Source: a bacterium
Lineage (GTDB): Bacteria > Edwardsbacteria > AC1 > EtOH8
Length of the DNA stretch: 53,664 nt
Direction of reading: 5' to 3'
NCBI GenBank assembly: GCA_030655055.1
Contig: JAURWH010000011.1
Coordinates: 1-53,664, forward strand
A model generated the notes under the pieces. It saw nothing but the letters and a program-made list of their open reading frames with translations, was not told where the DNA came from and ran no database searches. Positions 5,410 to 46,720 of the stretch are shown in pieces. Positions within the stretch are counted from its first letter, which is position 1. Every line of letters begins with the position of its first letter. The position numbers were made by a program, and so were the translations under genes.

Positions 5410-5425
5410 AACCGCCAGATTTAGC

Positions 5426-5455: not shown

Positions 5456-5513
5456 TATACTGGGCCTGAAGCCTATTTAGGTTTTCAGCTATTTTTCCAT
5501 TTAATAAAGACTT

Positions 5514-6437: not shown

Positions 6438-6514
6438 TCCTGTTTGTCCCAGGTATTTTTTCCCAGTTCATTTTATGGTATAATGGACTGGGTTTTTTTA
6501 TGGCCGGGGGCACC

Positions 6515-32292: not shown

Positions 32293-32308
32293 TACTCTAA
32301 TTCCCTAC

Positions 32309-32337
32309 TTGACTTTAAGCGCATAATTTGTTATAGT
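32309..32337 (+). promoter_or_regulatory. Sigma70-like promoter (TTGACT-N17-TATAGT) ~200 nt upstream of tRNA-Val
   Basis: -35 at 32309-32314 and -10 at 32332-32337. No ORF lies in the intervening leader. Confidence 0.4.
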
Positions 32338-32533
32338 TTAAACTGATAGACTATCCAGTTCGTCAAAAAAAGAGAATTCTCTAAACTTTGGCATTACCTC
32401 AATATCCGTGTTTTAACAGGCGTTCAAGAGATCATCAAATCCCTTAGTAACGCATTCATAACACTGGTATTGGGCGTTCTTCGCTGGCACCGGAAGATGA
32501 CAAATTCAGGATGACGAATGCAAAATATAAGAT

Positions 32534-32610
32534 GGGCGATTAGCTCAGTTGGTTAGAGCGTCTGCTTTACACGCAGAAGGCCGGGGGTTCGAGCCCCTCA
32601 TTGCCCACCA
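32534..32610 (+). tRNA. tRNA-Val (anticodon TAC), CCA encoded
   Basis: I folded the cloverleaf by hand. The acceptor stem is GGGCGAT/ATTGCCC and the D stem GCTC/GAGC. The anticodon stem TCTGC/GCAGA carries loop TTTACAC. The T stem GGGGG/CCCTC carries a TTCGAGC loop. Discriminator A is followed by CCA. Confidence 0.92.
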
Positions 32611-32946
32611 TTTTGTGCAAAACATTTGCACAATGCAAAGATTGCAGAAAGTCTAAAATTGATGGTCCGGAGGCATTATTATCAATGATACATTATTTCT
32701 CAGTTATGATCACTCTCTCGGTACAGGTAAATTAGCCGATGTAACTTTAGAGCTGATTTCCTTTACCCCTTTTATTGGTCAAATAAGAGCAATATAATAT
32801 AAGGGGCCAGAAAACAAGGGTTTGTACCGGACATTCTCAATGATCCGCCCAATTCTTTCCCAAAAGATTATGATAAAATCGTTATCAAAATCAGGGCTGT
32901 ATTTGTTGGCATAGATTATGCAAATATAGTTAAGTGGAGGTTTGAG

Positions 32947-33147
32947 ATGGATATTGCGGAGATCGGCGGAAATGCGGGGTTGGTTTGGAAAGCACTGAAT
33001 CAAAAAGGTTCCCAGACCGCAACCACACTTAAGAAACTTACCGGACTTGATGACAAGAATTTATGTCTTGCCTTGGGATGGCTGGCCAGGGAGGGGAAGA
33101 TAATTTTCCGCTCCGAAAAACGCAGCATCATGATCGTTCTCAAATAG
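32947..33147 (+). CDS. Small winged-helix protein (DUF2582-like wHTH)
   Basis: 66 aa. IGGNAGLVWKALNQKGSQTATTLKKLTGLDDKNLCLALGWLAREGKI matches my recollection of the DUF2582 pattern. A GGAGG RBS lies 7 nt upstream. Confidence 0.55.
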   Translation: MDIAEIGGNAGLVWKALNQKGSQTATTLKKLTGLDDKNLCLALGWLAREGKIIFRSEKRSIMIVLK

Positions 33148-33159
33148 GCCCTGGATCAT

Positions 33160-33214
33160 TCCCGCCATCCTGATCAATGTTTTTTACATTGGGCAATACT
33201 AGGGCGGGATTTTT
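33160..33214 (+). terminator. Compound stem-loop plus T5 after the wHTH gene
   Basis: TCCCGCC ... GGCGGGA encloses CAATGT-TTTTT-ACATTG and is followed by TTTTT. Confidence 0.35.
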
Positions 33215-33335
33215 GTCTAAAAACGGAAAATGCCTGTTGGCTAAAAACCAAATAAAAATATTTTTTTCCGGAAGCCCGTCAATTTTAAAACCATCCCCGG
33301 TCATTAATGAAAATCACTATAAAGCGCGTGTAATC

Positions 33336-33854
33336 ATGAAGAGTAATATTTTAGTCATTGTATTTATCCTGATTTGCTGCGGCATTTCCCAGGCCCAGGT
33401 GAATTCATCGCTGACGATAGATTTTAAAAACCCGGCGCTGTTGAGCATGGAAATAGACCGTTCGCAGATCTCGGTTCAGCTTACCAAAAATTTTGCCTCG
33501 GGACCGGTGGCCTTGAGCAGTCCGGTGATGGTCACCATAAAAAGCAATGTGCCGTGGGCGCTGGCCGCTACTGCCAACACCGATTTCCTGTGCACCGATA
33601 ATGCATTGAACACCATTCCCTGCAGCCAGCTGGAATTCAAATCACGCCTCAGCGGCAGTACCGAGAATGTCCGGGAGCAGCAGGAAGAATACTTGAGCTT
33701 TGCCAAGGGCCAGGCCATGACCATAGCCCGGGGCGATGCCACGCCCAACGAGGGGCTGTATATCCTGGTGGAATACCGGCTGGTGACCAGTCTTAAGAAC
33801 CCGGCCGGGAATTACAGCCTGCCCCTGGTATTTACCCTGAGTCCGTCTCAATAA
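33336..33854 (+). CDS. Small secreted beta-rich protein, subunit-like (A)
   Basis: 172 aa with signal peptide MKSNILVIVFILICCGISQAQ. It shows alternating beta-strand patterns and ends AGNYSLPLVFTLSPSQ. The next gene's GTG follows 2 nt after the stop. I took the ATG at 33336 inside the ORF that the track opens at 33177. Confidence 0.55.
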   Translation: MKSNILVIVFILICCGISQAQVNSSLTIDFKNPALLSMEIDRSQISVQLTKNFASGPVALSSPVMVTIKSNVPWALAATANTDFLCTDNALNTIPCSQLEFKSRLSGSTENVREQQEEYLSFAKGQAMTIARGDATPNEGLYILVEYRLVTSLKNPAGNYSLPLVFTLSPSQ

Positions 33855-33859
33855 TAGTG

Positions 33860-36781
33860 ATGAACATTAGGTTATACATAATGCTGATTCTGTCGGCTGG
33901 TATTTTTACACCGCTGACAGGGCAGGCTGTTCCTTTAACCGGCCAGGGGTCCGCCGGTATGTCCGGCAGCAAGGGCACTGGCGGACCGGATGCCTACGGC
34001 TACAGCTACATCGACAATAACCCGGTACAGGCCGGCAGCCCCGCCTATGTCTGGATCGACACCATCGGAGCGGGCTGGACCACCGTTACCGGCCTGGGGG
34101 ACGACAATTTTTCCGGGCCGTTCAACATCGGTTTCACTTCTCCGTTCCCATATTACTGGAACACTGCCACTCAGTTCTGGGTTCATGCCAACGGCGGGAT
34201 CTCCTTGTCCCAGCCTTTGAGGGGCTGGACCCCTTATGCAAGCGGGGAGAACGGCTTTCCCAACCTGGCCAAACCCCAGGACCTGGTGGGCGGGTTGGGC
34301 ATAGACCTTGATCTTACCAACGCCGGCAAGTGCAAATACCGCTCCCGCAACGATTCGCTGGTGGTAAGCTGGAACGGGGTGCGGGGCTGGAACACCACGG
34401 CCTGGTATAATTTCCAGATACTGCTGACCAGTGCCGACAGCTCCATCAAACTGCAATACCACCGCATCGACCCGGCCTTTCCCGCCGCCAATGCCAGCAT
34501 CGGCATAGAGAACAATAACGGCACGGTGGGCTTAAGTTACTACAACAACGGCGTCCCGGCCGGCAATCTTCCGGCGGCGGGCCGGGCGGTCAGGATATAT
34601 CCGCCGGCCAGTTCCTCATACACTTCCACCGATGCCGGCGCGGCCTGGGCCCTTAACCCCCAAAGCGGGGCGTTGGTGATGCATACGTTGGATATGTTCC
34701 AGCCCCAGGCTTCAGTGGCAAATTTCGGGACCGGACCGGTGGTCATTCCCATGACCATCTGCCGGATAAGGAACGCGGCAGGAACGGTGGTCTACGCCGA
34801 CACCATCCTGAACATCGCGCTGTCAAAAAGCCAACAGCAGGACACGGCCTTCATTAAAACATTCAATCCTATGGTGGCCGGCACCTATACCCTGGTGGTC
34901 AGGACCGAGGGTCTGGCCGAAAGCCCGGCCAACCCGGCCAACGATTCGGTGATCGTGGAACTGCCGGTGGTGGCTTACCAGTCGTGGCTGCGCTACGACG
35001 ACAACACCGCCGAAGCTTTTTGGGCCTGGAGCGGGGCCAGTGCCACAGCCCAAAAGGGATTCGGATCGTATTTCGAGCTAAGCCGCTACCCGGTGATGGT
35101 GGACAGCGCCCAGGTCTATATCAATTACCGCAACAAGGATGCCATATTCATACAGGTTTATGACGCCTCCGGGCCGGGCGGGGGGCCGGGAACCCTTTTG
35201 GCTACCGACACGATAAGGGTGAACGGCAATAACCAATATAAATGGATACCGATTTCCTACACCACCAGAAATATCACCATTTCCAACGGTAAGTTCTTCA
35301 TCTGCGTAAAAACATCCGATCCCACCGTGCGCTTTGGCCTGGACCAGAACAGTCCCATATCCCGCAGGACCTGGGAATTCACCGGGAGCTGGACCCCTTT
35401 CCGGGGACTGGAGACCCAGGATGTGATGATCCGGGCTAATGTCCACAAACCCCGCAATTCCGCCATCTATGTGGATGCCGTGGCCGGCAGCGACCTTAAT
35501 CCCGGCACCAGCGCATTGCCGCTAAAGACCATGACCCACGCGGTGGAGGTGATAAGCAGTACCGATACCTGTTATGCCCGCAGCGGCAGTTACACCGGCC
35601 GGCTGACCTTCACTCCTCGGCATTCCGGCACCGCCGCCAACCGGACGGTGATCACCGCCCAGGCCGGGCATACTCCCCTGCTTTACGCCGGCGGGGCGGA
35701 CGGCTCCATCATCGACAGCGCCGCTTCCTACATTACCTTCAACGGATTCACGGTTTATCCCGGCAGCGTGGTCTCGGCCTATTTCCAGGATGCCGTCCAG
35801 GTGCAGTTCACCAACAACCGGATCTATGTCCCCACCATGGGCTTCGGGCTTCTGGCCGTCAGTTCGACAACATCGCTAATCAAGGGCAACACCGTGGGAC
35901 CCGCCGCCGACAACGTCAACCCGGCCGAAGGAGTCTATCTATGGGGAACGGACCAGGTCAGGATCGACAGCAACCGGATCTCGGGTATGATAGACGCCGG
36001 CATTGTGCTGGACTCGGACACCCGCACCACGGTCTGCCGCAACCTTTCGGACCACTGCTTTTTTGGGATCGATCTATGGGGCAGCAGCGGCGATTCGCTA
36101 TACAACAACACATTTGACGGCAACCTCAATTCCGGCATCCATGTCCAGGGCCTCAGCGGGACGCTGGTCATCCGCAATACCAACAGCACCAACAATATCT
36201 ACGGCATCTGCTGGGACAGCTCCGGCTCGGTCTTCAGCGACTATAATAATATCTGGAACAACACTTATAACTACAAGAACCCGCAGGCTCCGGGAGACAC
36301 CAACGTTGTCCCGGCCGGCGTCCACGACATATCGGCCGATCCGCAGTATACGGCCGCTTATCACCTGCTGTCCACCAGCCCCTGCCGCAACGCCGGGATC
36401 CCGGTGGGCCTGCCCTATCTGGGAACGGCCCCGGACATAGGCGCTTACGAGGACTGGGCCAAGTTCCTGGATGTTGACGGCGCATACCCCGGAGGCTTGA
36501 CCCCGAAATTCGGCTTAAAACAGAACCGGCCCAATCCGTTCGTCCGGACCACCACCATCACCTATCAACTGCCGGCTGCGGGGGCGGTCAGTCTAAGGGT
36601 TTACAACATCACCGGACAGCTGGTGAGGAGCCTGGTAAGTGAAGTTCAGAATCCCGGAGAGCACAGCGTAAACTGGGACGGGAGGGATGCCGGAGGACGG
36701 ATTGTGAGCGCGGGCGTCTACCACTGCCGGCTGGCCAGCGGGGGCCAGACGCAGACTCGGTCACTGCTGTATGTCAAGTGA
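33860..36781 (+). CDS. Large secreted right-handed beta-helix protein with a FlgD-Ig (T9SS-type) C-terminal domain
   Basis: It has a signal peptide and an N-terminal GGPDAYGY...YVWIDT...GDDNFSGPFNIGF module. The middle carries parallel beta-helix repeats (NRI...GI.L.., SGIHVQG, NNIYGICWD). The C-terminus is NRPNPFVRTTTITYQL...YNITGQLVRS...WDGRDAGGRIVSAGVYHCRL. Confidence 0.8.
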   Translation: MNIRLYIMLILSAGIFTPLTGQAVPLTGQGSAGMSGSKGTGGPDAYGYSYIDNNPVQAGSPAYVWIDTIGAGWTTVTGLGDDNFSGPFNIGFTSPFPYYWNTATQFWVHANGGISLSQPLRGWTPYASGENGFPNLAKPQDLVGGLGIDLDLTNAGKCKYRSRNDSLVVSWNGVRGWNTTAWYNFQILLTSADSSIKLQYHRIDPAFPAANASIGIENNNGTVGLSYYNNGVPAGNLPAAGRAVRIYPPASSSYTSTDAGAAWALNPQSGALVMHTLDMFQPQASVANFGTGPVVIPMTICRIRNAAGTVVYADTILNIALSKSQQQDTAFIKTFNPMVAGTYTLVVRTEGLAESPANPANDSVIVELPVVAYQSWLRYDDNTAEAFWAWSGASATAQKGFGSYFELSRYPVMVDSAQVYINYRNKDAIFIQVYDASGPGGGPGTLLATDTIRVNGNNQYKWIPISYTTRNITISNGKFFICVKTSDPTVRFGLDQNSPISRRTWEFTGSWTPFRGLETQDVMIRANVHKPRNSAIYVDAVAGSDLNPGTSALPLKTMTHAVEVISSTDTCYARSGSYTGRLTFTPRHSGTAANRTVITAQAGHTPLLYAGGADGSIIDSAASYITFNGFTVYPGSVVSAYFQDAVQVQFTNNRIYVPTMGFGLLAVSSTTSLIKGNTVGPAADNVNPAEGVYLWGTDQVRIDSNRISGMIDAGIVLDSDTRTTVCRNLSDHCFFGIDLWGSSGDSLYNNTFDGNLNSGIHVQGLSGTLVIRNTNSTNNIYGICWDSSGSVFSDYNNIWNNTYNYKNPQAPGDTNVVPAGVHDISADPQYTAAYHLLSTSPCRNAGIPVGLPYLGTAPDIGAYEDWAKFLDVDGAYPGGLTPKFGLKQNRPNPFVRTTTITYQLPAAGAVSLRVYNITGQLVRSLVSEVQNPGEHSVNWDGRDAGGRIVSAGVYHCRLASGGQTQTRSLLYVK

Positions 36782-36925
36782 TCCAAAACACTGTTATTTA
36801 ATAAACAACATAAACATTAATTAATAACCAAAACGAAAGGAAACGCATCTTTGAAAAAAAGCATTCCTTATCAGCAGGGCCTGGCTGATGTCAACCAACA
36901 AATCAATAGAAAGGAACCCAAAAAC

Positions 36926-37444
36926 ATGAGGAAATCATTACTGATTCTCACGGCATTAGTGCTGGCCACCAGCATGGTATGGGCCGATGCAATCACCGGA
37001 CCTTCCCCGGTATCCCACAACGTTACGGTTACCGTGATCGTCCCGGGACGGCTGGGCATCAACATTCCCGCTATCGAGCATAACTGGACGCTTGACCTGG
37101 CATTAGATCCGACTTATCCGCCGGCCGCCCTGACCCCGTACCTGATCACCAACAACGCGACCGTGCAGATCATCTCCAACAATGCGTTCACTTACGGCTA
37201 TACCGCTTCCATGACAACAACCTTGACCAATCTGACAGTGGGTGATTTCCAGTATGACGCCACCGGCTGGATCCCTGGCTGGGCAGGCTGGCAGAACTTC
37301 GGTGCGGCCGGTACCTTCGAGACCGGGCTGGCTGCGACCGCTGGCTGGGTCAACCGCAATATGATGTACCGGGTGAACCTTGACGGCACCGAGGCAGTGG
37401 GCACTGGCGTAATGACTCTGGTCCACACCATTACCCAACCGTAA
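36926..37444 (+). CDS. Small secreted beta-rich protein, subunit-like (B1)
   Basis: 172 aa with signal peptide ending VWA/DAITG. It has an NWTLDL motif, a W/G-rich DATGWIPGWAGWQNFG loop, and the C-terminus GTGVMTLVHTITQP. I took the ATG at 36926 with an AAAGGA RBS. Confidence 0.7.
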   Translation: MRKSLLILTALVLATSMVWADAITGPSPVSHNVTVTVIVPGRLGINIPAIEHNWTLDLALDPTYPPAALTPYLITNNATVQIISNNAFTYGYTASMTTTLTNLTVGDFQYDATGWIPGWAGWQNFGAAGTFETGLAATAGWVNRNMMYRVNLDGTEAVGTGVMTLVHTITQP

Positions 37445-37504
37445 TTACAACTACAGGCAAATGACAACAGGGGGGCGCCACCCAAAAAGAGCATTGGCGA
37501 TTTT

Positions 37505-37538
37505 CATCCCGGCCCAGATCGAGGATCGGGCCGGGATG
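37505..37538 (+). terminator. GC-rich stem-loop between B1 and B2 (possible attenuator, no U-tract)
   Basis: CATCCCGGCCCAGATC-GAG-GATCGGGCCGGGATG forms a ~15-bp stem with one bulge. Confidence 0.4.
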
Positions 37539-37776
37539 ATGGGCTTTGTGGTGACGCCCCTCTCAGCGCAGTATAGGCGATAAAAGACCTGTTAGAGCAG
37601 AGAAAAAACCGGGAAACACCGGGTGACGTGGTATGGGCGGGAGGCTCAGAGCCGGCATGCAGGCACCGACAATGGTTGCTTTTGTTTGCAGGCTTAAGGT
37701 CAGCAACAGATGCAGTCGCTGCTGTTTATTCTGTAGCGGCGCCAGTTAAACTTTAAATTGAAAAAGGTAGCAGGAA

Positions 37777-38295
37777 ATGAAGAAACTACTAATTCTTCTT
37801 GCCGTATTGGCAGCAACCGCCGGTATGGTATGGGCCGATGCAATCACCGGCACTTCGCCGGTATCCCACAACGTAACATTCACCGTGATCATCCCGGGGC
37901 GGCTGGGCATCAACATTCCTGCGGTCGAACACAACTGGACGCTTGACCTGTCGCTTAATCCTTTGTACCCGCCGGCCGTGACCACCCCTTTTGTGATCAC
38001 GAACAACGCAACCGTGCAGATCCTATCAAACGATCCGTACACCTACGGCTATACCGCTTCCATGACCACTTCATTGGCCAACCTGACCGTGAGCGATTTC
38101 CAGTATGACGCCACCGGCTGGATCCCCGGTTGGGCCGGCTGGCAGAGCTTCGGAGCGGGAGGCACCTTCCAGACCGGGCTGGCCGCAACGGCAGGTTGGG
38201 AGAACCGCAACATGATGTACCGGGTGAACCTTGACGGCACCGAAGATATCGGCACAGGCGTAATGACCCTGGTCCACATTATTACCCAACCGTAA
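37777..38295 (+). CDS. Small secreted beta-rich protein, subunit-like (B2, tandem duplicate of B1)
   Basis: 172 aa, collinear with B1 without indels. My hand alignment gives 25 substitutions in the 152 predicted mature residues. The ~20 nt after the stop (TAATTACAACTAYAGG) is shared with B1. Confidence 0.7.
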   Translation: MKKLLILLAVLAATAGMVWADAITGTSPVSHNVTFTVIIPGRLGINIPAVEHNWTLDLSLNPLYPPAVTTPFVITNNATVQILSNDPYTYGYTASMTTSLANLTVSDFQYDATGWIPGWAGWQSFGAGGTFQTGLAATAGWENRNMMYRVNLDGTEDIGTGVMTLVHIITQP

Positions 38296-38338
38296 TTACA
38301 ACTATAGGTACAGGTAAATGAAGACGAGCGGGCATCAT

Positions 38339-38431
38339 ATGAAAAAAATCATATTGGCAGTATTTATCCTGGCCATGGCCGCGGGACCGGGCCGGGGGCT
38401 GGGCTGTTTAGTGACCCCCCCCCCGCTGTGA
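38339..38431 (+). other. Orphan signal-peptide ORF ending just after a C10 tract
   Basis: MKKIILAVFILAMAAGPGRGLGCLVTPPPL-stop; an in-frame upstream ATG also exists at 38318. Removing one C fuses it in frame to the 38439 ORF. Confidence 0.6.
38415..38424 (+). repeat. C10 homopolymer at the frameshift point
   Basis: GTGA-CCCCCCCCCC-GCTGTGAG, counted directly in the sequence. Confidence 0.95.
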
Positions 38432-38438
38432 GTTAACG

Positions 38439-39128
38439 ATGGCTTCGGGTCAAAGCCAAACTGTGATCATAAACATAATCAATAAAGACAGCACTGCGCC
38501 GCGGAGATTAAAGGTTTCGGTCAAAGGCTGGGAGAAAGAAAGAAACGGCCAAATCACCTACTACGATCCCGCCGGCAAGAACCGTTCCTGCGGGAACTGG
38601 CTGGAGGTCAATCCCTCCGAATTCGAGATGCCGGCCGGAGGCGTTGAGGCAGCGAGGTTTACCGTTACCGTACCGGAAACTGTCAGTGGTTCATATTGGG
38701 CGATAATCTTCTTTGAGAGCCAGCCAGACACAATGGTAAAGACCACTGTGGGGGTCAGGTTTGTCGGCCGGGTGGGCGTTTCGGTGTATGTTAACGTCGA
38801 CGGCACCCTGCAGTACCAGTCGGAAATGACGGGTTTGTCCTATAAAAGAGGGGGATATAAAAAGCACGAGTTTAAAGTGGGGATCAAGAACGCCGGCAAT
38901 GCATATTTCAGGCCCAAGGGCACAGTGGAGATCAAAGATGCCGCGGGCAAAAAGATAAATACCACACCTTTTCCAGATGACCTGGTCGTCCTTCCCGGAG
39001 CGCAGAATGACATAAAGATCACCATCAATGAGGTGATCCCACCGGGACACTACACAGCCAACATCACCATCGACTGCGGTCAACCGGAGCTGCTGGAGGG
39101 CGAGACCTCTTTTGAGGTGGTGCCTTGA
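38439..39128 (+). CDS. Two-domain Ig-like (beta-sandwich) protein C1, as called lacking its signal peptide because of an upstream frameshift
   Basis: 229 aa. Domain 1 has the block CGNWLEVNPSEFEMPAGGVEAARFTVTVPETVSGSYWAIIFFES. Domain 2 has the block FKVGIKNAGNAYFRPKGTVEIKD...VLPGAQNDIKITINEVIPPGHYTANITI. It is a paralog of 41621-42730. The same frame upstream of the ATG (PPPRCELT) still aligns to the paralog. Confidence 0.7.
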   Translation: MASGQSQTVIINIINKDSTAPRRLKVSVKGWEKERNGQITYYDPAGKNRSCGNWLEVNPSEFEMPAGGVEAARFTVTVPETVSGSYWAIIFFESQPDTMVKTTVGVRFVGRVGVSVYVNVDGTLQYQSEMTGLSYKRGGYKKHEFKVGIKNAGNAYFRPKGTVEIKDAAGKKINTTPFPDDLVVLPGAQNDIKITINEVIPPGHYTANITIDCGQPELLEGETSFEVVP

Positions 39129-39198
39129 TAAGGCAGATGCTTTTAATCCGGCCCGGCCGCCTTCATCTGCCGGGCTTCCTTATTTTTAAGGACTAAGC

Positions 39199-41619
39199 AT
39201 GGGCCGTTCAGCCTACATATCGGCCTGGCTGCCGACCCTTTTGGTGTTGGCCGGGTTTAGCCAGGTCCGGGCCTATAGTTTCATGAATCTGGAATACCGC
39301 GACTATCTTTACCAGCCCAGCGGGCAGAGATACTATCAGGCATATTATCGCATCGGCTCCGACCAGACCGCCGGGGATTTTCGTACCCGGTATTTTTTGG
39401 AATTCAACGACAATGCAATCAAGGATCCGGCCTTGAACCGGATCGAGATGCAGTTCTCGGGCTGGAAATTCCTGGGGGGAAGATGGGACGCCAGCCTGGG
39501 CGATATCACCATGTCACCGGTCTCCCCGGGCCAGAGTTCGGTTTCCCTGCGGGGCACCAAACTGGTGACCGGGTGGGGACAGAAGATCTCCGCCGAAACA
39601 TTCGCCGGAAGGATACCGGACCTTTATCACCGGGCCAATTTCCCCACCTTCAATAACAATAATATTTTAATTTCCCAGGGGATCAAGGGGATATTATCCA
39701 AACAATTCAATTTTAAATCCAGGGTATCCTACCGCCGGGATAAGAAGGCCGAGCTGTATTACAGTTATCTCAAGGCTAAGGACCTTTGCGAATGGGCCAA
39801 CCGGGTGGAATGGGACCTCCGCCCCAACTTAAGGGGGCAGCACCAGCTGGCCTTAAGCTATAACCGGGACTTTAACGGCATCCGGCGAACCGATATCAGC
39901 GGAAGCAGCAGCTGGGAATATTTCAACCCCTGGTTCCGCAGCTCGGCCGATTACCAATACCGGGGTCCGGGCTACATCAGTTCCGCCAACGACGGCAATG
40001 GTTGCGGAGAAAACCAGCTGGCGCTTTCCTCCAGCGGGGTGCTGCTGAAAAAGATCACTCTTTTCGGCAACTACAGTCAAAAATGGGCCAGGACTCCGGA
40101 TGACACCACCCTGTTCTGGAACCAGTTCCAGAAGTGGGGCACCGGCCTGCAGACGGCGATCCCCCGCTGGCCCCTGTTCAGCTACAAATTTGACCGTTAC
40201 ACCTGGGGCTATCACCGGGGACGGAGGACCTTTCAGGATATGGTGCAGTACACCAACAGCTTGGAACTGCAATACAACTGGCGGCTCTATCTTTGGAGGC
40301 TGGGTTACCAGCTGCAGGAGTCCCGGGATCTCATTGCCGGAAGCCAGAGGCTCTGGCACCAGGGATCGTTGACCGGAAGTTACCGCATGGGGAGCTTTGG
40401 GCTGAACCTGGACCAAAGGGGCAGCCGCTATAACAGCCCCAAGCAACTGCAGTGGTCTCAGAGCTTCGGCTTTGACCAGCGCTGGGGCCGGCTGCTCAAC
40501 ACCTCATTATCGGCTAACTGGTGCCAGGGCAATTCCGAAACCTACCGCTGGAAGACCGAGAACTGGGGCTGGAGCCTTAAGGCCGGGACAGACCGGACCA
40601 GCGGCTGGAACCTGTCGGCCGACCTCGGCCAGAACTATTATTATTATTCCGACCTGGGCCCGGTGGTCCGGAACACCAGCTGGGGGTTCAAATTGGAGCG
40701 GCGCTTTGACGGCTGGGGCCAGCTGGTCAGCCTGGGTCAGATAAACGGGCGGGTTTACGAGGACGCCAACGGAAACATGACCTTTGACAACGGCGACAAG
40801 GGCATTCCCGGGATACCGATAATGATAGACGGGAAAGAGGCCGCCCAGACCGGCCGCAGCGGAGAGTACCGGGTATTGGGGGTGGCCGCCGGCAGCCATT
40901 CGGTGAAAATGGACATTTCCAAGCTGGATGCCGGGATGGATCCCAGCATCGGAGGCCAGCGACGATTCACCACCGTCGGGGTCTGGGGCCCCAGGGTGGA
41001 TTTTCCCCTGGCCCCGCTCAACGAGATCTACGGCAATGTTTTTCTGGATGAGAACCGCAACGGCATCCGCGATGAGGAAGATGCCGGACTGCCAGGGGTA
41101 TTTGTGCTGATGGGAGACAACCGCCGGTTTACCGCCAGCGACAATGAAGGGGATTTTATCTTCCATAATGTCCAGCCGGGAAGGTACCGGGTCTTTATCG
41201 ATCCCCGCTTCCTGCCCGACACTCTGGCCGTGACCGGGGAGCAGCAGCGTTTCATTGAGGTAGAGAACAAGAACGATGTAGGCGGCGTAGCCTTCGGAAT
41301 AGGCAAAAAGGTAAGGCCGGTAAGAAAGATGGTCTTCGCCCCATCCCAAGTGACGGAGCCCGGTCCCAAAACCGTTCCGGTAAAACCGGGCCGCTCCAAA
41401 ACCGGCCAGCCGGTCAAACAAATCGCCAAGGCTTCGGCGGAAGAGATCAAGAGGCTGTATGATCTGGGGATCAAACAATATTCAACCGGAGATTACCAGA
41501 GCTCCATGACCACCTGGAACCAACTACTTAGGATTGATCCCGGAAACGGCGAGGCCAGAAAAAACCGGGACAGGACCAAAGGGAAGTTGGACGCCCTGCA
41601 GAAGATCAAAGGCCAATAG
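39199..41619 (+). CDS. Predicted outer-membrane beta-barrel protein with two SdrD-B/carboxypeptidase-regulatory-like beta-sandwich domains and a C-terminal TPR-like tail
   Basis: It has signal peptide MGRSAYISAWLPTLLVLAGFSQVRA. About 500 aa are Y/W/R/N/G-rich alternating strands. Two repeats follow: GRVYEDANGNMTFDNGDKGIPGIPIMIDG...GEYRVLGVAAGSH and GNVFLDENRNGIRDEEDAGLPGVFVLMGD...GDFIFHNVQPGRY. A P/K-rich linker then leads to YSTGDYQSSMTTWNQLLRIDPGNGEARKNRD. Confidence 0.65.
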   Translation: MGRSAYISAWLPTLLVLAGFSQVRAYSFMNLEYRDYLYQPSGQRYYQAYYRIGSDQTAGDFRTRYFLEFNDNAIKDPALNRIEMQFSGWKFLGGRWDASLGDITMSPVSPGQSSVSLRGTKLVTGWGQKISAETFAGRIPDLYHRANFPTFNNNNILISQGIKGILSKQFNFKSRVSYRRDKKAELYYSYLKAKDLCEWANRVEWDLRPNLRGQHQLALSYNRDFNGIRRTDISGSSSWEYFNPWFRSSADYQYRGPGYISSANDGNGCGENQLALSSSGVLLKKITLFGNYSQKWARTPDDTTLFWNQFQKWGTGLQTAIPRWPLFSYKFDRYTWGYHRGRRTFQDMVQYTNSLELQYNWRLYLWRLGYQLQESRDLIAGSQRLWHQGSLTGSYRMGSFGLNLDQRGSRYNSPKQLQWSQSFGFDQRWGRLLNTSLSANWCQGNSETYRWKTENWGWSLKAGTDRTSGWNLSADLGQNYYYYSDLGPVVRNTSWGFKLERRFDGWGQLVSLGQINGRVYEDANGNMTFDNGDKGIPGIPIMIDGKEAAQTGRSGEYRVLGVAAGSHSVKMDISKLDAGMDPSIGGQRRFTTVGVWGPRVDFPLAPLNEIYGNVFLDENRNGIRDEEDAGLPGVFVLMGDNRRFTASDNEGDFIFHNVQPGRYRVFIDPRFLPDTLAVTGEQQRFIEVENKNDVGGVAFGIGKKVRPVRKMVFAPSQVTEPGPKTVPVKPGRSKTGQPVKQIAKASAEEIKRLYDLGIKQYSTGDYQSSMTTWNQLLRIDPGNGEARKNRDRTKGKLDALQKIKGQ

Positions 41620-41620
41620 C

Positions 41621-42730
41621 ATGAACAGAGAAACAAAAATAAATATGAACCGCATTTTATTTACCATAGTATTTTCAGTCATGATGATCCAGCTGGCCGC
41701 CGAGGTTCCGGCGCAGGCCACGCCCGGCCTGATGGCCTGGCCCAGCAAGATCGATCTATCGGTCAAGGCCGGCGGCGCCAAGACCGGTTATGTAAATGTG
41801 CAGAACCAGGGATTGAACAAAGTGCGGCTAAAAGTTAACATAATGAATTGCCGGATGACCGAGGATGGGGCGATAATTTACACTAATAAGAATGTCTCTT
41901 TCGGTTGCAGCCAATGGCTGAAGGTTGATCCGGCGGAATTCAACCTTTCACCCCGGGCCAGCCAGCAGGTACTCTACTCCATAGAGGTTCCCCAGAGCGC
42001 CCAGGGCACCTATATGGCGGTGATCCTTTTCGAGACCAATGTTTCAAACGGCGACTATCAGAACCTGCCGGGAGCGCTGGTGGTTGAGAATGTGCCGGGA
42101 ACGGGACAGAAGAGGGCAGACCTGACGGAGCTTTCCTTTCAAAAAGGCATCGACGGAGGGAACGCCAATGCAGTGCTGGGGATCAGCAACTCCGGGTCGA
42201 TGATATGCAATCCCACCGGCACTCTGGAGGTCACCGATCTCAAGCGGGGCGGGAAGGTGAACTTTGCCATCAACCGGGAAAATGAACCGGTGCTGCCCGC
42301 CTCCATGCGCCGCTTCCGGATCCCGCTGGAGGGGCTTTACAACGGACAGTATAAAGTGCTGGCGGTGGTGGACTATCAGGGCAGCGAGATACTGCAGGGC
42401 GAGGCCACGGTGACCATCAACGCCGGAGAACTGATAGCCCAAAGCAACCGGACGGCCAACGGCAGGACCAAGGGCGGAGACCGGTTATCGTCCGAAGGAC
42501 AAAAGAAGACTCCCGGGCCGGCCGAGCCGAAAAACTCTTCTTCGCTTTCTTCCGCCGAGATCGAGACGCTGAACCGGGAGGCGGTGAAATTATATTCCGA
42601 GGGGGATTATGAAAAAGCCCTGGCCCAGTGGCAAAAGGTGCTGCGGGCCGATCCCGGTCACAACGGGGCCAAGAACGGGGCCGAACGCGCCAGGAAGAAA
42701 ATAGAAGCCTTGAAGAAGGCCAGGGGATAG
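41621..42730 (+). CDS. Two-domain Ig-like (beta-sandwich) secreted protein C2 with a C-terminal TPR-like tail
   Basis: The signal peptide ends VPAQA/TPG. It has CSQWLKVDPAEFNLSPRASQQVLYSIEVPQSAQGTYMAVILFET and a second sandwich domain ending GQYKVLAVVDY. The tail is YSEGDYEKALAQWQKVLRADPGHNGAKNGAE. I took the ATG at 41621, 2 nt after the upstream stop; the ORF-track start at 41534 overlaps the barrel gene. Confidence 0.65.
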   Translation: MNRETKINMNRILFTIVFSVMMIQLAAEVPAQATPGLMAWPSKIDLSVKAGGAKTGYVNVQNQGLNKVRLKVNIMNCRMTEDGAIIYTNKNVSFGCSQWLKVDPAEFNLSPRASQQVLYSIEVPQSAQGTYMAVILFETNVSNGDYQNLPGALVVENVPGTGQKRADLTELSFQKGIDGGNANAVLGISNSGSMICNPTGTLEVTDLKRGGKVNFAINRENEPVLPASMRRFRIPLEGLYNGQYKVLAVVDYQGSEILQGEATVTINAGELIAQSNRTANGRTKGGDRLSSEGQKKTPGPAEPKNSSSLSSAEIETLNREAVKLYSEGDYEKALAQWQKVLRADPGHNGAKNGAERARKKIEALKKARG

Positions 42731-42752: not shown

Positions 42753-42786
42753 AAAAAAACCGGCTTGCATAGCAAGCCGGTTTTTT
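42753..42786. terminator. Bidirectional rho-independent terminator between convergent genes
   Basis: AAAAAAA-CCGGCTTGC-ATA-GCAAGCCGG-TTTTTT. Confidence 0.85.
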
Positions 42787-42801
42787 CATGTTGGCCGCGA
42801 A

Positions 42802-44865
42802 TTACCGCAGCAAAAGCACTTTATGTATCAATCGTTCATCGTTGGTTTGCAGGCGCAGGAAATAAAAGCCGTTGGGCAGTCTTCGCCCTCCGTCGCCGGT
42901 TCCGTTCCAAATGAAATGATGAATGCCGCCGGCCATCTTTCGCCGGGACAGGAAGGTCTTGACCAGCTGTCCCGATATGTTATATGCCGAAAGGCTGGCC
43001 GGACCTGGTTTAGTTAACTGCAAATTGATCATTGTTAGTTGGCTGAACGGATTGGGGGCGGTACTGAGAGATATTCTGCCGGTCAAAATATCACCGGATA
43101 TCTCCCGGCCTTCAACCCCGGTGGGGGAGCACAGGATTGCCGTGACTGAATCACGGACAGTGCCTGTTTGATCGATCACTTTTATATGCGCCCGGTAGGT
43201 AAGATTGCTGTCCAATCCGGCATTATTGAAGGTCAGCCGGATGCTGTCGCTGTCCGGCGGGGTAAAACCGCCGCTGGTTTTGGATAAGGTCAGCCAGAGC
43301 GCATTGTGGGCGCGGATGTCATAGGCCGCCAGCCGGTCGGTGGCATCCTGCAGCAGGCCCAGCAGGACTCCGCGCCCCGGCACCAGTCCAGTGCTGAAGG
43401 TGGCGCCCCCGGCGCAGGCGTTGGCCGGGTCGACGGCCGGGCACTGGAACTCAACCCCGGTATAACTGCCGGAGGAAGGGTCGAACTGGCTGGCCTGGAT
43501 CTGAGGCCAGCCGTCCTGGCTGAAGACCCAGAGCCAGGGACCGTCGGGAGCGGTGGCATCCCAGGCCAGGCCGAAGATGTTCTTGCTGTTGGGCCATGAA
43601 CCGGCCAGGCTGCCGTCGCGGTTCACCCGTCGGATATCATCGGAATAATTGGCGGTGTAAAAACAGTCGGCCGCCGGGTCATAAGCCAGTCCCCGGCAGG
43701 GGCTGGTGTGGGCGGAAATCTTCACTCCAGTGACCGCGCCGCTGGCAGTGTCTATCTGTTCTATCGAATCGCCGGAAGCGGCGTAAAGGTAAGCGCCGTC
43801 GAAACACAGGTCGCGCCAGCCCCAGCCATTACCGGAAGGCTGGGGATAGCTGGCCAGCAGGGAGCCGCCTTTATCAAGCTTATACAGGTAATTGGGGTCG
43901 GCAGCGGGGTCATCTGCCGCCCCGGTGACCCATAAGTTGACGCCGTCGTATTCAACTCCCAGGCAGAGGTTGTCGCCGGTGATGCCGCTGATATCCAAGC
44001 CCCACAGGGAGTCGCCGAAGGATTTGCTTTTAGCCGCCTGTTCCGGCCATTCCACGGTATACTGCAGATCCCTTGTACCTCCAATTCCCAAATGAAGGTA
44101 TTGTGAGGAATCAATGGAATTGGGGGACAGGACAACGCTGACCGATTCGGCCGGGTTCAAGGCAACCGTGGGGTAGCCCAGGGAAAAGTCCACTGAAACC
44201 GTTGCGCCCACCGTGAGATCGATGGCGGTGACAGCGGAGTCAAGGTAATTTGTCTTCCGGGCAGTAAGGGTATAAGTGCCGATGGGGGCCGAGGGAAAAC
44301 TGTAATTCCCCGCCATGGTGGTATCAACCAGCAGCGTTCCGCCGGAGGTGGCAGTAATTATTACTCCATCCAAGGGAATTCCCCCGGCATTGTCGTCGGT
44401 AACCAGGCCCTCGATCTGTCCGGTATATTCGAAGGTGGCAAATCCCTGCTGGAGGGTGTCGTTGGCAGTGACTTCATCCCCGGTCAGGACAAGATATGCC
44501 GTAGCGGTATATTTCATCAATGACTCAGGGACAAACGCGGTTCCAAAAACAAGCTGGCGTCCGGCACCCGGGGCCAGGCTGTCAGTCATCATCAGGGAAT
44601 CAAAGTAGACCCTTTGGGCCAGGCTGTCGTCGATGGCATAGTAAGCCCAAACACTGTCCTCGTAATAAATGCCGAAATTCTCCAAAGTGAAGGCCGGATA
44701 AAAGGGCATTCCCGGCGGCACCAAAGCGGCGGCCGGGGTATCGATGGAAACGGCCGCCAGATCGTGTTCCACCCCCGGACCGAAATGGTCCTGTTGCATC
44801 ACTGCGGCTGGAGACAGTGATGCGGTTGCGGCAGCCAGCAAAAGAGGGATCAGAAAGTATCTCAT
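42802..44865 (-). CDS. Secreted multidomain protein (CARDB-like, carboxypeptidase-regulatory-like, beta-propeller-like) with a FlgD-Ig (T9SS-type) C-terminal domain
   Basis: It has signal peptide MRYFLIPLLLAAATASLSPA and the block GQIEGLVTDDNAGGIPLDGVIITA...GNYSFPSAPIGTYTLTA. The C-terminus is APNPFSQLTMINLQL...YNISGQLVKT...WNGTGDGGRRLPNGFYFLRL. I took the ATG at 44865 inside the ORF that the track opens at 44940. Confidence 0.8.
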   Translation of the reverse strand: MRYFLIPLLLAAATASLSPAAVMQQDHFGPGVEHDLAAVSIDTPAAALVPPGMPFYPAFTLENFGIYYEDSVWAYYAIDDSLAQRVYFDSLMMTDSLAPGAGRQLVFGTAFVPESLMKYTATAYLVLTGDEVTANDTLQQGFATFEYTGQIEGLVTDDNAGGIPLDGVIITATSGGTLLVDTTMAGNYSFPSAPIGTYTLTARKTNYLDSAVTAIDLTVGATVSVDFSLGYPTVALNPAESVSVVLSPNSIDSSQYLHLGIGGTRDLQYTVEWPEQAAKSKSFGDSLWGLDISGITGDNLCLGVEYDGVNLWVTGAADDPAADPNYLYKLDKGGSLLASYPQPSGNGWGWRDLCFDGAYLYAASGDSIEQIDTASGAVTGVKISAHTSPCRGLAYDPAADCFYTANYSDDIRRVNRDGSLAGSWPNSKNIFGLAWDATAPDGPWLWVFSQDGWPQIQASQFDPSSGSYTGVEFQCPAVDPANACAGGATFSTGLVPGRGVLLGLLQDATDRLAAYDIRAHNALWLTLSKTSGGFTPPDSDSIRLTFNNAGLDSNLTYRAHIKVIDQTGTVRDSVTAILCSPTGVEGREISGDILTGRISLSTAPNPFSQLTMINLQLTKPGPASLSAYNISGQLVKTFLSRRKMAGGIHHFIWNGTGDGGRRLPNGFYFLRLQTNDERLIHKVLLLR

Positions 44866-44956
44866 TTTTCTATTAGTAAAATTAAAGGGGATCATTGAAA
44901 ACCAACGGTCAATCATGAACTGTATTGCGACGGTGATCACCCGGCCATGTCCGCTT

Positions 44957-46716
<1,760 letters not shown>

Positions 46717-46720
<4 letters not shown>

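Follow-up and report, generated by a model that had tools for sequence, protein, structure and literature searches.

A candidate pilus-assembly locus pairing WxLIP-like proteins and secreted subunits with an outer-membrane barrel

The Gram-positive WxL-interacting proteins (WxLIP) are described as surface anchors and stabilisers, not as assembly chaperones, and insertion of a strand into their partner has been predicted for them (PMC10599100). The TLP-1a/b fibres, recovered from pond water, consist of protomers that polymerise by N-terminal donor-strand exchange, as seen in their cryo-EM structure; according to the authors, both the source organism and the assembly machinery are missing (PMC11494351). 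These structures come from the CryoSeek work (PNAS 2024), and the PDB chains are named TLP-1 and TLP-2 (9ikj/9ikk). In the searchable literature, the publications that we found on DUF916 concern Firmicutes only, nothing relevant was found on DUF916/WxLIP in diderms or on DUF4402, and we found no description of a diderm system of the kind presented here.

The locus studied here belongs to a bacterium of candidate division TA06 and lies in a window of 53,664 nucleotides, by which we mean the whole stretch of DNA that was analysed. We lean, by a modest margin, towards reading it as a chaperone-assisted, donor-strand-exchange pilus pathway that follows the logic of the usher but is made of non-usher protein families. 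In this reading, the polymerisation of the subunits, the action of the chaperones and the role of the pore are inferred.

The operon and its chaperone-like proteins

An original prediction, made before any database search, proposed seven co-oriented genes lying close together. A check of the open reading frames places all seven on the forward strand, at the coordinates then given, and the proposal holds with one correction, which concerns the frame of gene C1. The features are the following:

32947..33147, + strand: small winged-helix protein DUF2582, 66 aa (Pfam DUF2582, 5.3e-20)
33336..33854, + strand: A, secreted pilin-like subunit, 172 aa, of the A-like/TLP-1-like family
33857..36781, + strand: beta-helix/CTD protein, 974 aa (Pfam and TIGR04183)
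36926..37444, + strand: B1, secreted pilin-like subunit, 172 aa, tandem paralog of B2
37504..37539, + strand: GC-rich perfect 12-bp hairpin, starting 60 nt past the B1 stop codon
37777..38295, + strand: B2, secreted pilin-like subunit, 172 aa (AF2 model, Foldseek, hhalign)
38339..39128, + strand: C1, two-domain Ig-fold chaperone-like protein, frame broken by a run of ten C
39199..41619, + strand: barrel protein, 806 aa, candidate usher-like pore (Pfam, composition, hhalign)
41621..42730, + strand: C2, second chaperone-like protein, 369 aa (AF2, Foldseek, Pfam)
42753..42787, unstranded: strong terminator hairpin of 16 bp with A/T runs on both sides, bidirectional, closing the operon

From A to C2, the successive intergenic gaps are 2, 144, 332, 43, 70 and 1 bp, and by inspection each of the seven proteins begins with a signal-peptide-like segment. 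The hairpin between B1 and B2 is possibly an intercistronic attenuator, a function that is only inferred. A DUF2582 gene also stands directly 5' of A in four other loci (L001, L003, L004 and L014), and its winged-helix product might be a regulator of the locus, a role that again rests on inference alone. Downstream of the operon, a second CTD protein is encoded convergently.

The real start of C1 is the ATG at 38339, with a signal peptide next to it, and the frame is broken by the run of ten C at 38415-38424. Deleting one C yields a C1 of 262 aa, colinear with the intact orthologs, whose lengths range from 239 to 269 aa. C1 and C2 are paralogs: they have 26% identity, and 22 columns are invariant across both families. 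The block C..WL.V.P.EF...G.Y.A.I.FE, already predicted to be shared by C1 and C2, is kept across the wider C family as well.

In C2, two beta-sandwich domains (residues 37-160 and 166-272) are followed by a disordered linker and a three-helix TPR-like tail, which matches TPR_2 at 9.3e-5 (Pfam). Its AF2 model has a pLDDT of 78.5 overall and of about 90 within both beta-sandwich domains. The best Foldseek matches of this model are WxLIP structures (9i25_C/9i1y, E 1e-12), 9i25 being the complex of a WxLIP with a WxL protein. Next come about 40 chains of chaperone-usher (CU) chaperones at E 1e-9 to 1e-8, among them CfaA, CsuC, Caf1M and FimC, with a TM of about 0.5. The broad C-family profile (A9, with C1 and C2 included) matches EfmWxLIP1 of E. 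faecium at E 2.7e-12 over both domains, and its second sequence match, a weak one at E 0.012, is the fimbrial chaperone EcpB. The family profile and the Foldseek search of the AF2 model together show that C1 and C2 are homologous to the Gram-positive WxLIP.

The Pfam models give a fainter picture. Against WxLIP_PGBD (PF06030), C2 scores 20.8 bits (E 4.1e-4) and C1 15.4 bits (E 0.019), both below the gathering cutoff of 27.3; the model is matched by 38 of 68 distant C relatives, and the Deferrimicrobium C ortholog reaches 29.8 bits. WxLIP_HBD (PF11797) has no match in C1 or C2 and is matched by 6 of the 68 relatives, but the second domain of the family is still covered by the profile and Foldseek alignments to EfmWxLIP1. 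The C-terminal transmembrane helix is absent, C1 stopping directly past domain 2 and C2 ending in its TPR-like tail. No protein of the locus matches PapD_N or PapD_C at E<=1 in Pfam or NCBIfam; one C relative is labelled 'P pilus assembly chaperone PapD' by JGI/IMG. The description of C1 and C2 as two beta-sandwich-like halves is thus upheld for C2 by the AF2 model and Foldseek, and for C1 by paralogy; their proposed resemblance to DUF916+DUF3324 proteins is upheld by profile and by fold, with the Pfam gathering cutoffs unmet.

An exhaustive HMMER search (E<=1e-3) finds about 10,390 clusters of the C family at 50% identity. Word-index searches with C2, B2 or a diverse C alignment return close TA06-like relatives only, and suggest a misleadingly tiny family. 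We sampled the C family in candidate division TA06, Ca. Edwardsbacteria, Ca. Deferrimicrobium and low-G+C contigs that are probably Flavobacteriales-like. The size of this family, together with the alternation of barrel and secretin, the probable link to TLP-1 and the TPR-like tails discussed below, had escaped the original prediction.

Secreted subunits and the TLP-1 fibres

In subunit A, the N-terminal segment SSLTIDF is a candidate donor strand; the protein also carries the motif SNVPWAL and a C-terminal one, AGNYSLPLVFTL. Taken alone, it matches nothing in Pfam, NCBIfam or PDB sequence searches, and it can be aligned with the subunits of 8 other loci. B1 and B2 have 79% identity. B2 has an N-terminal strand, NVTFTVII, of alternating hydrophobic residues, followed by a flexible linker; a word-index homolog search finds only 19 homologs of B2, all from TA06-like assemblies. 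Its AF2 model, of medium confidence (pLDDT 68.8), is an all-beta sandwich whose first strand is followed by a linker of low confidence (residues 42-53), and its best Foldseek matches are the CU pilins EcpA, BPSL1626 and DraE/AfaE, with weak E values of 6.5e-3 to 0.1. With signal peptides removed, hhalign relates the B family to the A-like family at 64% (E 6.4e-5) over 132 columns. Profile searches of the PDB with the narrow A family and with the B family yielded nothing useful. That A, B1 and B2 are incomplete Ig folds polymerising by donor-strand exchange is an inference, and there is no evidence of polymerisation.

By inspection, A, B1, B2 and their orthologs have ordinary Sec signal peptides, and no prepilin leader, LPXTG or conserved cleavage-site Cys. 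The claim that they are not type IV, type V or sortase pilins is borne out by this inspection; a type V lipoprotein pilin identity was considered, then rejected. The further claim that A and B end in a WxL-like tail fails as a statement of WxL membership: the motif G.Y...(F/Y)T at their C terminus is common to the A-like/TLP-1-like pilin family. The three subunits match no WxL model of Pfam or NCBIfam, the A and B profiles do not match the WxL chain of 9i25, and WxL structures are absent from the Foldseek top 50 of the B2 model. On the Pfam and 9i25 results, a WxL-domain identity was rejected.

Three colinear motifs unite the A-like and the TLP-1-like pilins: the N-terminal donor strand, S.V.W.L, and a C-terminal G.Y...V.Y. 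Comparing the A-like profile with the TLP-1-like pilin family, hhalign gives 93.6% (E 2e-7), and 65.7% (E 5.8e-5) once signal peptides are removed; the narrow A family reaches only 13%. Against the PDB TLP chains, the A-like profile obtains E 0.08-0.16, and this match is lost with a larger profile, to which Deferrimicrobium subunits were added, because long insertions degraded the N-terminal alignment. Among 1366 ORFs, the signal-peptide-free A-like HMM matches only pilin-like ones, the TLP-like ORFs at E 9e-6 to 4e-3, and no unrelated ORF scores above these. In the other direction, the TLP HMM has no direct match to A or B, and B1 and B2 show no direct similarity to TLP-1. With moderate support, a remote homology of the A-like subunits to the TLP-1a/b protomer is likely.

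The gene neighbourhoods give a second view of this link. In 5 freshwater loci (L022, L029, L034, L043 and L047), a C-family gene lies directly 5' of the TLP-1-like pilin (E 1e-38 to 1e-39). On the downstream side, L029, L033, L034, L036 and L041 have a pilin paralog and then a barrel/SdrD_B/tail protein. This outer-membrane protein, of 1164-1195 aa, has a barrel-like region and two SdrD_B-like domains, to which a charged linker joins a helical tail; it can be aligned with the barrel of the window in the SdrD_B region only, and its N-terminal Ig-like region cannot be recognised as a fused C-like module. No C gene stands beside the pilin in L033, L036 and L041, of which L033 is uninformative on this point because its contig starts 188 bp upstream of the pilin ORF. 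The TLP-type loci begin with a large CTD protein, which is unrelated to the large CTD protein of the TA06 loci. Relatives of the present locus are likely to be the builders of the orphan TLP-1 fibres.

The outer-membrane partner and the recurrence of the locus

The barrel protein comprises a signal peptide, a barrel-like region at about residues 26-505, two SdrD_B/CarboxypepD_reg domains at 518-700 (Pfam 7.5e-15), a Pro/Lys-rich linker and, at 745-806, a TPR-like helical tail. Its composition is that of an outer-membrane protein, with 7% Tyr, 4.9% Trp and about 19 amphipathic beta segments, and residues 495-503 form a beta-signal-like WGFKLERRF. Neither Pfam nor NCBIfam has a model that matches the barrel region, and residues 1-510 have no PDB sequence match; in particular, no Usher or PapC model of Pfam or NCBIfam matches, and a PDB profile search yielded nothing useful except TPR and SdrD matches. 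The fold and the number of strands are inferred from sequence alone, resting on composition and amphipathicity, and the role of the protein as a candidate usher-like assembly pore is inferred too. The two extra beta-sandwich domains that had been predicted are indeed present, and the stated lack of PapD motifs and of an usher plug-like sequence holds at the sequence level in Pfam and NCBIfam. The C-terminal TPR-like modules of the barrel and of C2 are homologous, and this tail weakly resembles the TPR region of Amuc_1098, an outer-membrane protein of type IV pili (E 1e-3).

The core formed by A, the beta-helix gene, B, C and the barrel recurs in L001, L003, L005, L010 and L014. Synteny with the closest relatives extends over the whole neighbourhood and takes in aminotransferase, M23 peptidase and PhoR/PhoB genes, and an alignment search with the barrel alone found a single genome locus, of the same lineage. 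Since the flanking genes are syntenic too, conservation within TA06 is weak evidence on its own. The same core is, however, found in L011 with a different downstream neighbourhood, and a core of C, subunits and barrel is found in another phylum, in the Ca. Deferrimicrobium locus L015. This recurrence shows that the linkage of the genes is more than chance. Conservation of the linkage in related genomes had been put forward as a check on the original prediction; it was run, and the linkage is not absent. TA06 and Ca. Deferrimicrobium have homologous barrels in spite of their different gene surroundings: hhalign aligns the barrel protein with the protein 3' of the Ca. Deferrimicrobium C gene at 99.2% (E 1.9e-19) over 449 columns that include the barrel.

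In every sampled diderm context, the C gene adjoins small secreted A-like subunits and an outer-membrane protein, an association that spans unrelated neighbourhoods, G+C contents from 0.32 to 0.62 and different phyla. The outer-membrane protein is of the barrel type in the window and in L001, L003, L005, L010, L011, L013, L014 and L015; it is a secretin in L007, L008, L016 and L048.

A further possibility is that the genes have nothing to do with one another, the Ig-domain proteins being ordinary periplasmic ones and the outer-membrane protein unrelated to them, and that only the synteny of a lineage holds them together. The closest relatives are syntenic throughout, and most of the proteins have no family assignment. 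Against this, the association of C, A-like subunits and an outer-membrane protein recurs across unrelated neighbourhoods and phyla, the genes are co-oriented with mostly tiny gaps and a single terminator at the end, and C2 and the barrel have a specific tail module in common. This explanation is highly improbable.

The beta-helix protein is of the right-handed, NosD/pectate-lyase-like kind (Pfam Beta_helix 2.4e-15, NosD 3.4e-12, FlgD_ig 1.9e-11), and its residues 892-969 match the T9SS type A sorting domain TIGR04183 with 39.4 bits, the cutoff being 23. Its orthologs match Pel9A-like_beta_helix. Every TA06-type locus, and L011 as well, has the gene between A and B; it is missing from L013, L015 and the secretin-type loci. 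The protein is possibly an associated surface enzyme or adhesin.

With such a protein in the operon, one can imagine an accessory module of the T9SS, in which the barrel and the C proteins would be cargo-specific adaptors of the outer membrane and the periplasm (cf. PorP/SprF) for secreting or anchoring the beta-helix protein, and A and B anchoring subunits. This explanation is supported by the bona fide type A CTD of the beta-helix protein, by the convergent CTD gene downstream, and by the large CTD protein with which TLP-type loci begin. However, homologous loci with C and subunits exist without a CTD protein nearby (L015, L013 and the secretin-type L007 and L048), and the large CTD protein found in TA06 loci is unrelated to that of the TLP loci. 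CTD proteins are moreover very common in these phyla, and we infer that their adjacency could be due to chance. Finally, no T9SS model, PorP/SprF and PorV included, matches the barrel, and a PorP/SprF-like role for it was rejected. We consider a T9SS module very unlikely.

A better-supported rival, which remains unlikely, is a non-filamentous surface complex, the diderm counterpart of WxL/Csc, in which C1 and C2 would be adaptors that hold A, B and the beta-helix enzyme, through the barrel and the TPR-like tails, for the binding or degradation of polysaccharides, without any polymer. In its favour, the C family is homologous to WxLIP, which is proposed to stabilise WxL proteins on the wall and not to assemble fibres (PMC10599100); the composition of the locus, where a WxLIP-like protein and a large carbohydrate-active-like one go with small proteins, resembles that of Csc; and there is the Pel9A-like match of the beta-helix orthologs. 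On the other side, A and B match no WxL model and not the solved WxL chain either, and C1 and C2 are without the transmembrane anchor of WxLIP. A protomer proven to form donor-strand-exchange fibres is a probable relative of the A-like family, and its gene sits in a locus of this kind; a secretin, which is an export channel, can serve as the partner in the outer membrane; and most related loci have no beta-helix protein.

Proposed assembly pathway and known systems

We now return to the preferred reading, a pilus pathway. A, B1 and B2 would leave the cytoplasm through Sec as incomplete Ig-like subunits, each with a donor strand at its N terminus, and would be capped and stabilised in the periplasm by C1 and C2 through beta-strand complementation. 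The barrel would be the assembly pore of the outer membrane, with its two predicted periplasmic beta-sandwich domains placed like the C-terminal domains of the usher. At the barrel, the donor strand of the next subunit would replace the strand of the chaperone, and the fibre would be extruded. The matching TPR-like tails of C2 and of the barrel may tether the loaded chaperone to the pore, or both proteins to a common periplasmic partner. The beta-helix protein, as a T9SS substrate, would be a lineage-specific accessory surface enzyme or adhesin. Elsewhere, the partner of these chaperone and subunit families is a secretin and not a barrel. Against the pilus reading, it must be said that no protein contact or polymerisation has been shown, and that C1 is frameshifted in the window.

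A bolder conjecture, to which we give slightly less than even odds, is that the TA06 operon belongs to a phylogenetically broad, unnamed class of donor-strand-exchange pili with a WxLIP-type chaperone and a non-usher exporter, either an SdrD_B barrel or a secretin, whose pathway also builds TLP-1a/b; the WxL/Csc clusters would then represent, in monoderms, a branch of one ancestral system of strand complementation.

If the pilus reading is true, a widespread new assembly route joins the short list of bacterial pilus pathways, and the logic of a chaperone and an outer-membrane pore is also built with non-usher pores, including secretins. For the orphan TLP-1 fibres, there would then be a gene cluster and a likely host group, and a model of biogenesis that can be tested. 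The Gram-positive WxLIPs, which are linked to virulence and adhesion, would become relatives of pilus chaperones, and their strand insertion into WxL would be reinterpreted.

It remains to set the locus beside the known systems. As in secretin-dependent fibres (type IV/Tad pili, T2SS), sister C/A-like loci end in a secretin gene. They differ in that no prepilin motif was noted in the subunits of the sampled loci, which have Sec signal peptides instead; no Pfam family of prepilin peptidase, assembly ATPase or inner-membrane platform was found in the sampled loci, several neighbours having no Pfam match.

With WxL/Csc, the locus shares the homology of C1 and C2 to WxLIP, and an assortment in which a large multidomain protein and a WxLIP-like one accompany small secreted beta-sandwich proteins. 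It differs by its diderm host and its dedicated outer-membrane barrel, and by the absence of an LPXTG protein, of WxL domains in A and B, and of a transmembrane anchor in C1 and C2. The likeness to TLP-1 lies in the shared A-like motifs and in a locus with a C gene, a pilin paralog and a barrel/SdrD_B/tail protein. The TLP-1 pilins have, however, about 100 more residues, and their contigs are low-G+C and Flavobacteriales-like (PMC11494351).

The logic of the genes is that of the chaperone-usher pili, above all of the archaic and alternative kinds (Csu, CFA/I, Ecp). The profile searches that had been suggested as a check, run on Pfam and NCBIfam, matched no PapD, Usher, WxL, SCPU or TasA model, and the proteins of the locus match none of PapD_N/PapD_C, Usher, PapC_N/C, Fimbrial or SCPU. 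With PapD, Usher and WxL membership unmet, the statement that the locus could not be mapped onto a known system stands. The barrel of the window has no detectable plug or N-terminal chaperone-docking domain, and has SdrD_B-type domains and a TPR-like tail; the chaperone comes as two paralogs, of which one is TPR-tailed, and sister loci use a secretin. What is common is the logic itself: Ig-like subunits, a two-domain Ig-fold protein, and a barrel with two C-terminal sandwiches. The fold of C2 superposes on CfaA, CsuC, Caf1M and FimC, and the structures closest to the B2 model are those of EcpA, a type 1 fimbrial protein and Dr/Afa subunits. The proposed parallel with chaperone-usher fibres therefore holds at the level of folds, the likeness of B2 being weak. 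What would be new here, if the favoured pilus reading is right, is an usher-like pathway of non-usher parts that borders on a new class of pilus.

Layout of the locus and its flanks

The interval 33336-42730 holds seven open reading frames in a single orientation, with intergenic gaps of 2 to 332 bp. They encode three small secreted, pilin-like subunits (A, B1 and B2), two chaperone-like proteins made of two Ig-fold domains (C1 and C2), an 806-aa candidate outer-membrane pore, called here the barrel protein, and a beta-helix protein. Both the gene set and its conservation are shown. The features are:

32947-33147, directly upstream of A: DUF2582 winged-helix gene, 66 aa
33336-33854, + strand: A; no Pfam or NCBIfam match
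33857-36781, + strand: 974-aa beta-helix protein; Beta_helix, NosD, TIGR04183
36926-37444, + strand: B1; no Pfam or NCBIfam match
37777-38295, + strand: B2; no Pfam or NCBIfam match, all-beta sandwich in AlphaFold2
from ATG 38339 (true start), + strand: C1; frame shifted by a ten-C run
39199-41619, + strand: 806-aa barrel protein; two SdrD_B/CarboxypepD_reg domains and a C-terminal TPR-like unit
41621-42730, + strand: C2; sub-threshold WxLIP_PGBD, TPR-like tail
42753-42787: closing hairpin of 16 bp, A/T runs on both flanks; ends the transcription unit

The nearest public genome is a MAG of candidate division TA06 (GCA_016235665.1). The DUF2582 gene also precedes A in four related loci (L001, L003, L004 and L014). 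The promoter region of A contains short direct repeats (TTGKCTAAAAAC, at 33213-33224 and 33237-33248), as does the stretch upstream of the DUF2582 gene (32865-32932). A tRNA-Val(TAC) gene (32534-32610) stands just upstream of the locus, and G+C dips to 0.47 over the tRNA-to-A interval (32001-34000), against a window average of about 0.56: together they could mark an insertion boundary, yet the locus is syntenic in relatives. On the other side, a convergent minus-strand gene (42802-44940) encodes a secreted protein of 712 aa that combines a CarboxypepD_reg domain with a C-terminus of the FlgD_ig/Por_Secre_tail type; it is kept at the same position in L001, L003, L005 and L014, and PhoR/PhoB-like genes (44957-47403) come after it.

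The 332-bp gap between B1 and B2 contains, 60 nt past the B1 stop, a perfect 12-bp GC-rich inverted repeat with a 12-nt loop (37504-37539). Attenuating stem-loops follow major pilin genes, and by analogy this repeat may be one. The 3' flank ccaaccgtaattacaacta is common to B1 and B2, the expected outcome of a tandem duplication.

To take C1 for a 229-aa frame is a misreading: C1 starts at ATG 38339 with a signal peptide, just after which ten consecutive C (38415-38424), a homopolymer without parallel in the 53.7-kb window, shift the frame. With one C removed, the gene encodes 262 aa and is colinear with the intact orthologs; these carry CCCCACCCC (or TCTCCGCCCC) in place of the run. Assembly error, pseudogene and slipped-strand phase variation are all possible origins of the frameshift.

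Fold and family of the encoded proteins

C1 and C2 are paralogs, 26% identical, and the Pfam model WxLIP_PGBD, from the Gram-positive WxL-interacting proteins (WxLIP, DUF916 and DUF3324), falls below threshold for both (0.019 for C1, 4.1e-4 for C2). AlphaFold2 models C2 as two beta-sandwich domains (pLDDT about 90) to which a three-helix tail is attached through a disordered linker. The best Foldseek match in the PDB is the solved WxLIP of E. faecium (9i25_C, in complex with a long WxL protein, and 9i1y; E 1e-12, TM 0.5), followed by many chaperones of chaperone-usher systems (CfaA, CsuC, Caf1M, FimC, DraB, EcpB; E 1e-9 to 1e-8). A profile of 55 sequences, C1 and C2 included, matches EfmWxLIP1 over both domains (2.7e-12), its second match being the fimbrial chaperone EcpB (0.012). 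Among 68 relatives scanned from the best 150 matches, 38 contain WxLIP_PGBD (best 6.4e-12) and six WxLIP_HBD. One relative is named 'P pilus assembly chaperone PapD' in JGI/IMG and another, from Ca. Deferrimicrobium, 'DUF916 domain-containing protein' at NCBI. Fold ranking, profile match, Pfam matches of relatives and database names thus place C1 and C2 in the WxLIP superfamily as divergent members whose fold, as modelled, is close to PapD-like chaperones; they lack the transmembrane anchor that WxLIPs have.

By an exhaustive HMMER search, for which the tail was left off the C profile, this C family counts 10,390 clusters at E<=1e-3; at E<=1e-10, 3,860 remain. Single-unit, tailed and tandem architectures all occur. 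Many members are whole-unit tandem duplications (520-590 aa), while in the C protein of related locus L013 (9886-11592) one full two-domain unit is followed by the second domain three times more (about 157-264 in HMM positions).

Neither Pfam nor NCBIfam has a model that recognises the subunits A, B1 or B2. An alignment of A-like subunits from nine loci reveals three common motifs: an N-terminal alternating-hydrophobic strand, V.V.SN..W.L, and a C-terminal AG.Y......T. With signal peptides removed, hhalign relates B to the A-like family (64%, E 6.4e-5, 132 columns). AlphaFold2 folds B2 with medium confidence (pLDDT 68.8) into an all-beta sandwich whose first strand, NVTFTVII, precedes a low-confidence linker; its nearest PDB folds are the chaperone-usher pilins EcpA, BPSL1626 and DraE/AfaE, with weak E-values (6.5e-3 to 0.1), and no WxL structure is among its matches. 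The 'WxL-like tail' initially seen in A and B consequently does not amount to WxL membership.

In the barrel protein, two SdrD_B/CarboxypepD_reg domains (residues 518-700) precede one C-terminal TPR-like unit. Its first 510 residues match no Pfam or NCBIfam model and no PDB sequence; their composition is OMP-like, about 19 amphipathic beta segments can be counted, and the motif WGFKLERRF resembles a beta-signal. The TPR-like tails of the barrel protein (41431-41619) and C2 (42550-42730) are homologous modules of about 60 aa, each a single TPR-like unit and a helix behind a Pro/Lys-rich linker, with consensus KRLYD..G.Y......W..LL..DP.N...K.......K..AL.K. They weakly resemble the TPR region of Amuc_1098, an outer-membrane protein of type IV pili (NCBIfam, E about 1e-3). 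The 974-aa protein is a right-handed beta-helix (Beta_helix 2.4e-15, NosD 3.4e-12) ending in a genuine T9SS type A sorting domain, or CTD (TIGR04183, 39.4 bits for a cutoff of 23).

Related loci and the TLP-1 pilins

In the TA06 lineage the entire neighbourhood is syntenic, so linkage there proves little by itself. On a 459-kb metagenome contig (L011), a small protein, A (E 3e-28), a beta-helix CTD protein, B (9e-29), C (2e-92) and a tailed barrel (2e-80) appear together; C2 is absent and the downstream genes are other ones. The barrel tail is retained there though C2 is missing. In Ca. Deferrimicrobium (L015), three A-like subunits are accompanied by a C protein that passes the Pfam threshold (29.8 bits) and by a 749-aa protein whose barrel and SdrD_B regions match the window's barrel family (99.2% probability, E 1.9e-19, 449 columns): barrel homology spans two phyla. 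Locus L013 combines two small subunits, one weakly matching DUF4402, a C protein with extra second domains and a 995-aa outer-membrane-like protein with two T2SS-T3SS_pil_N and three SdrD_B domains.

A second architecture, in L007, L008 (TA06 bacterium DG_26), L016 and L048, comprises A-like subunits, a single C, a conserved 200-280-aa protein, a tandem C and a secretin. In L008 an 815-aa fusion (3994-6441) joins an OMP-like N-terminal region, CarboxypepD_reg and a complete secretin (STN, Secretin_N, Secretin 4.8e-45), possibly an intermediate between the two types of partner; its record does not annotate it as a gene.

Because this core recurs, A-like subunits, C and an outer-membrane channel of exchangeable type form the constant set in the sampled loci, for which taxonomy is known in a few MAGs only; there, the beta-helix CTD protein and C2 are lineage-specific extras. 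Linkage to a barrel or secretin is recurrent. Mere synteny is a highly unlikely explanation of the locus.

The additional secreted protein lies between single and tandem C in all secretin-type loci sampled (L007 6834-7673; L008 1415-2245; L016 1376-2089; L048 9308-9916), matches nothing in Pfam or NCBIfam, and has a conserved C-terminus, ...C(N/D)S(E/A)(G/C)(K/E)Y...(L/I)T(V/L)... In L009 (1735-4710), a C-family protein (P0181) sits beside weakly A-like 380-aa and 205-aa proteins and Big_13- and cohesin-domain proteins; the locus shows no outer-membrane component, hence perhaps a monoderm-type context of the family.

The only PDB matches of the A-like profile are chains named TLP-1 and TLP-2 (9ikj, 9ikk; E 0.08-0.16). 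Most likely these chains belong to the TLP-1a/b fibrils that the CryoSeek study described from pond water. In these 8-nm pili, the Ig-like fold of protomer n is completed by the N-terminal strand of protomer n+4, by donor-strand exchange (PMC11494351). The study's authors reported no source species, matching metagenome sequence or machinery; among predicted structures, the closest was that of a Flavobacteriales bacterium protein (PMC11494351). The match was lost once the profile was enlarged, and the link was therefore checked independently.

With a 59-residue aligned fragment as query, 31 freshwater loci from JGI metagenomes were found to encode proteins of 49-75% identity. TLP-1-like pilin genes with 63-75% identity to the density-derived PDB sequence, as on contigs L029, L034, L036 and L041 (G+C 0.32-0.34), are common in these metagenomes. 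The CryoSeek study reported no metagenomic match. A C-family gene lies just upstream of the pilin in five loci (L022, L029, L034, L043, L047; E 1e-38 to 1e-39). The long contigs L029 and L034 read: large T9SS-CTD protein, C, TLP-like pilin, pilin paralog (E 9e-13), and a 1164-1195-aa protein that begins with an Ig-like region, continues with a barrel-like one and two SdrD_B-like domains, and ends in a helical tail behind a charged linker. L036 and L041 have no C gene at the pilin, and unrelated minus-strand genes stand upstream of it in L036; the downstream genes are kept in L041, L033 and L036.

When the A-like and TLP-like families are compared profile against profile, the probability is 93.6% (E 2e-7); without signal peptides it is 65.7% (E 5.8e-5, over 87 columns that start at the donor strand and include the S.V.W.L strand), and with only the narrow A family it is 13%. 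A signal-peptide-free A-like HMM was also run on 1,366 six-frame ORFs taken from the window and every locus; at E<0.01 it retrieves only pilin-like ORFs, 22 of them TLP-like (21 pilins and one paralog). Homology of the two families is likely; their common locus architecture and the linkage of C-family genes to TLP-1-like pilin genes are shown.

A rival reading makes the locus a T9SS cargo-adaptor module. It is weakened by related loci without a CTD protein nearby, and by CTD proteins of TA06 and TLP loci that are unrelated to each other; we consider it very unlikely.

A putative donor-strand pilus among known systems

On balance, and by a modest margin, we favour a chaperone-assisted donor-strand-exchange pilus; the subunit, capping, pore and coupling roles are inferred, without multimer models or any model of the barrel or A. 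A and B would be the donor-strand subunits, capped in the periplasm by C1 and C2. The barrel protein would be the assembly pore, with its SdrD_B domains in the role of usher C-terminal domains, and C2 may be coupled to it through the common TPR-like tails. The beta-helix protein would be an accessory enzyme or adhesin displayed by the T9SS. For WxLIP, insertion of a strand into the WxL partner has been predicted (PMC10599100), and 9i25 is a solved structure of WxLIP in complex with WxL.

Literature searches on DUF916, WxLIP, DUF4402 and related terms returned no description of such a diderm system, and, of the DUF916 papers that they listed, all those whose subject organism is evident from title or abstract concern Firmicutes. 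The chaperone-like proteins share the WxLIP superfamily with WxL clusters, but the locus fails the remaining criteria for one: the C proteins lack a transmembrane anchor, WxL partners are absent, and the host is a diderm. As an alternative to a pilus, a surface complex of the Csc/WxL type that forms no polymer is unlikely. The locus works like chaperone-usher systems, as the donor-strand reading would have it, yet every sequence-family test for chaperone-usher failed (Pfam, NCBIfam). A bolder reading, a distinct and widespread pilus class that also accounts for the TLP-1 fibres, falls a little short of carrying our assent; the scales tip slightly towards a variant within the chaperone-assisted donor-strand-exchange pili.
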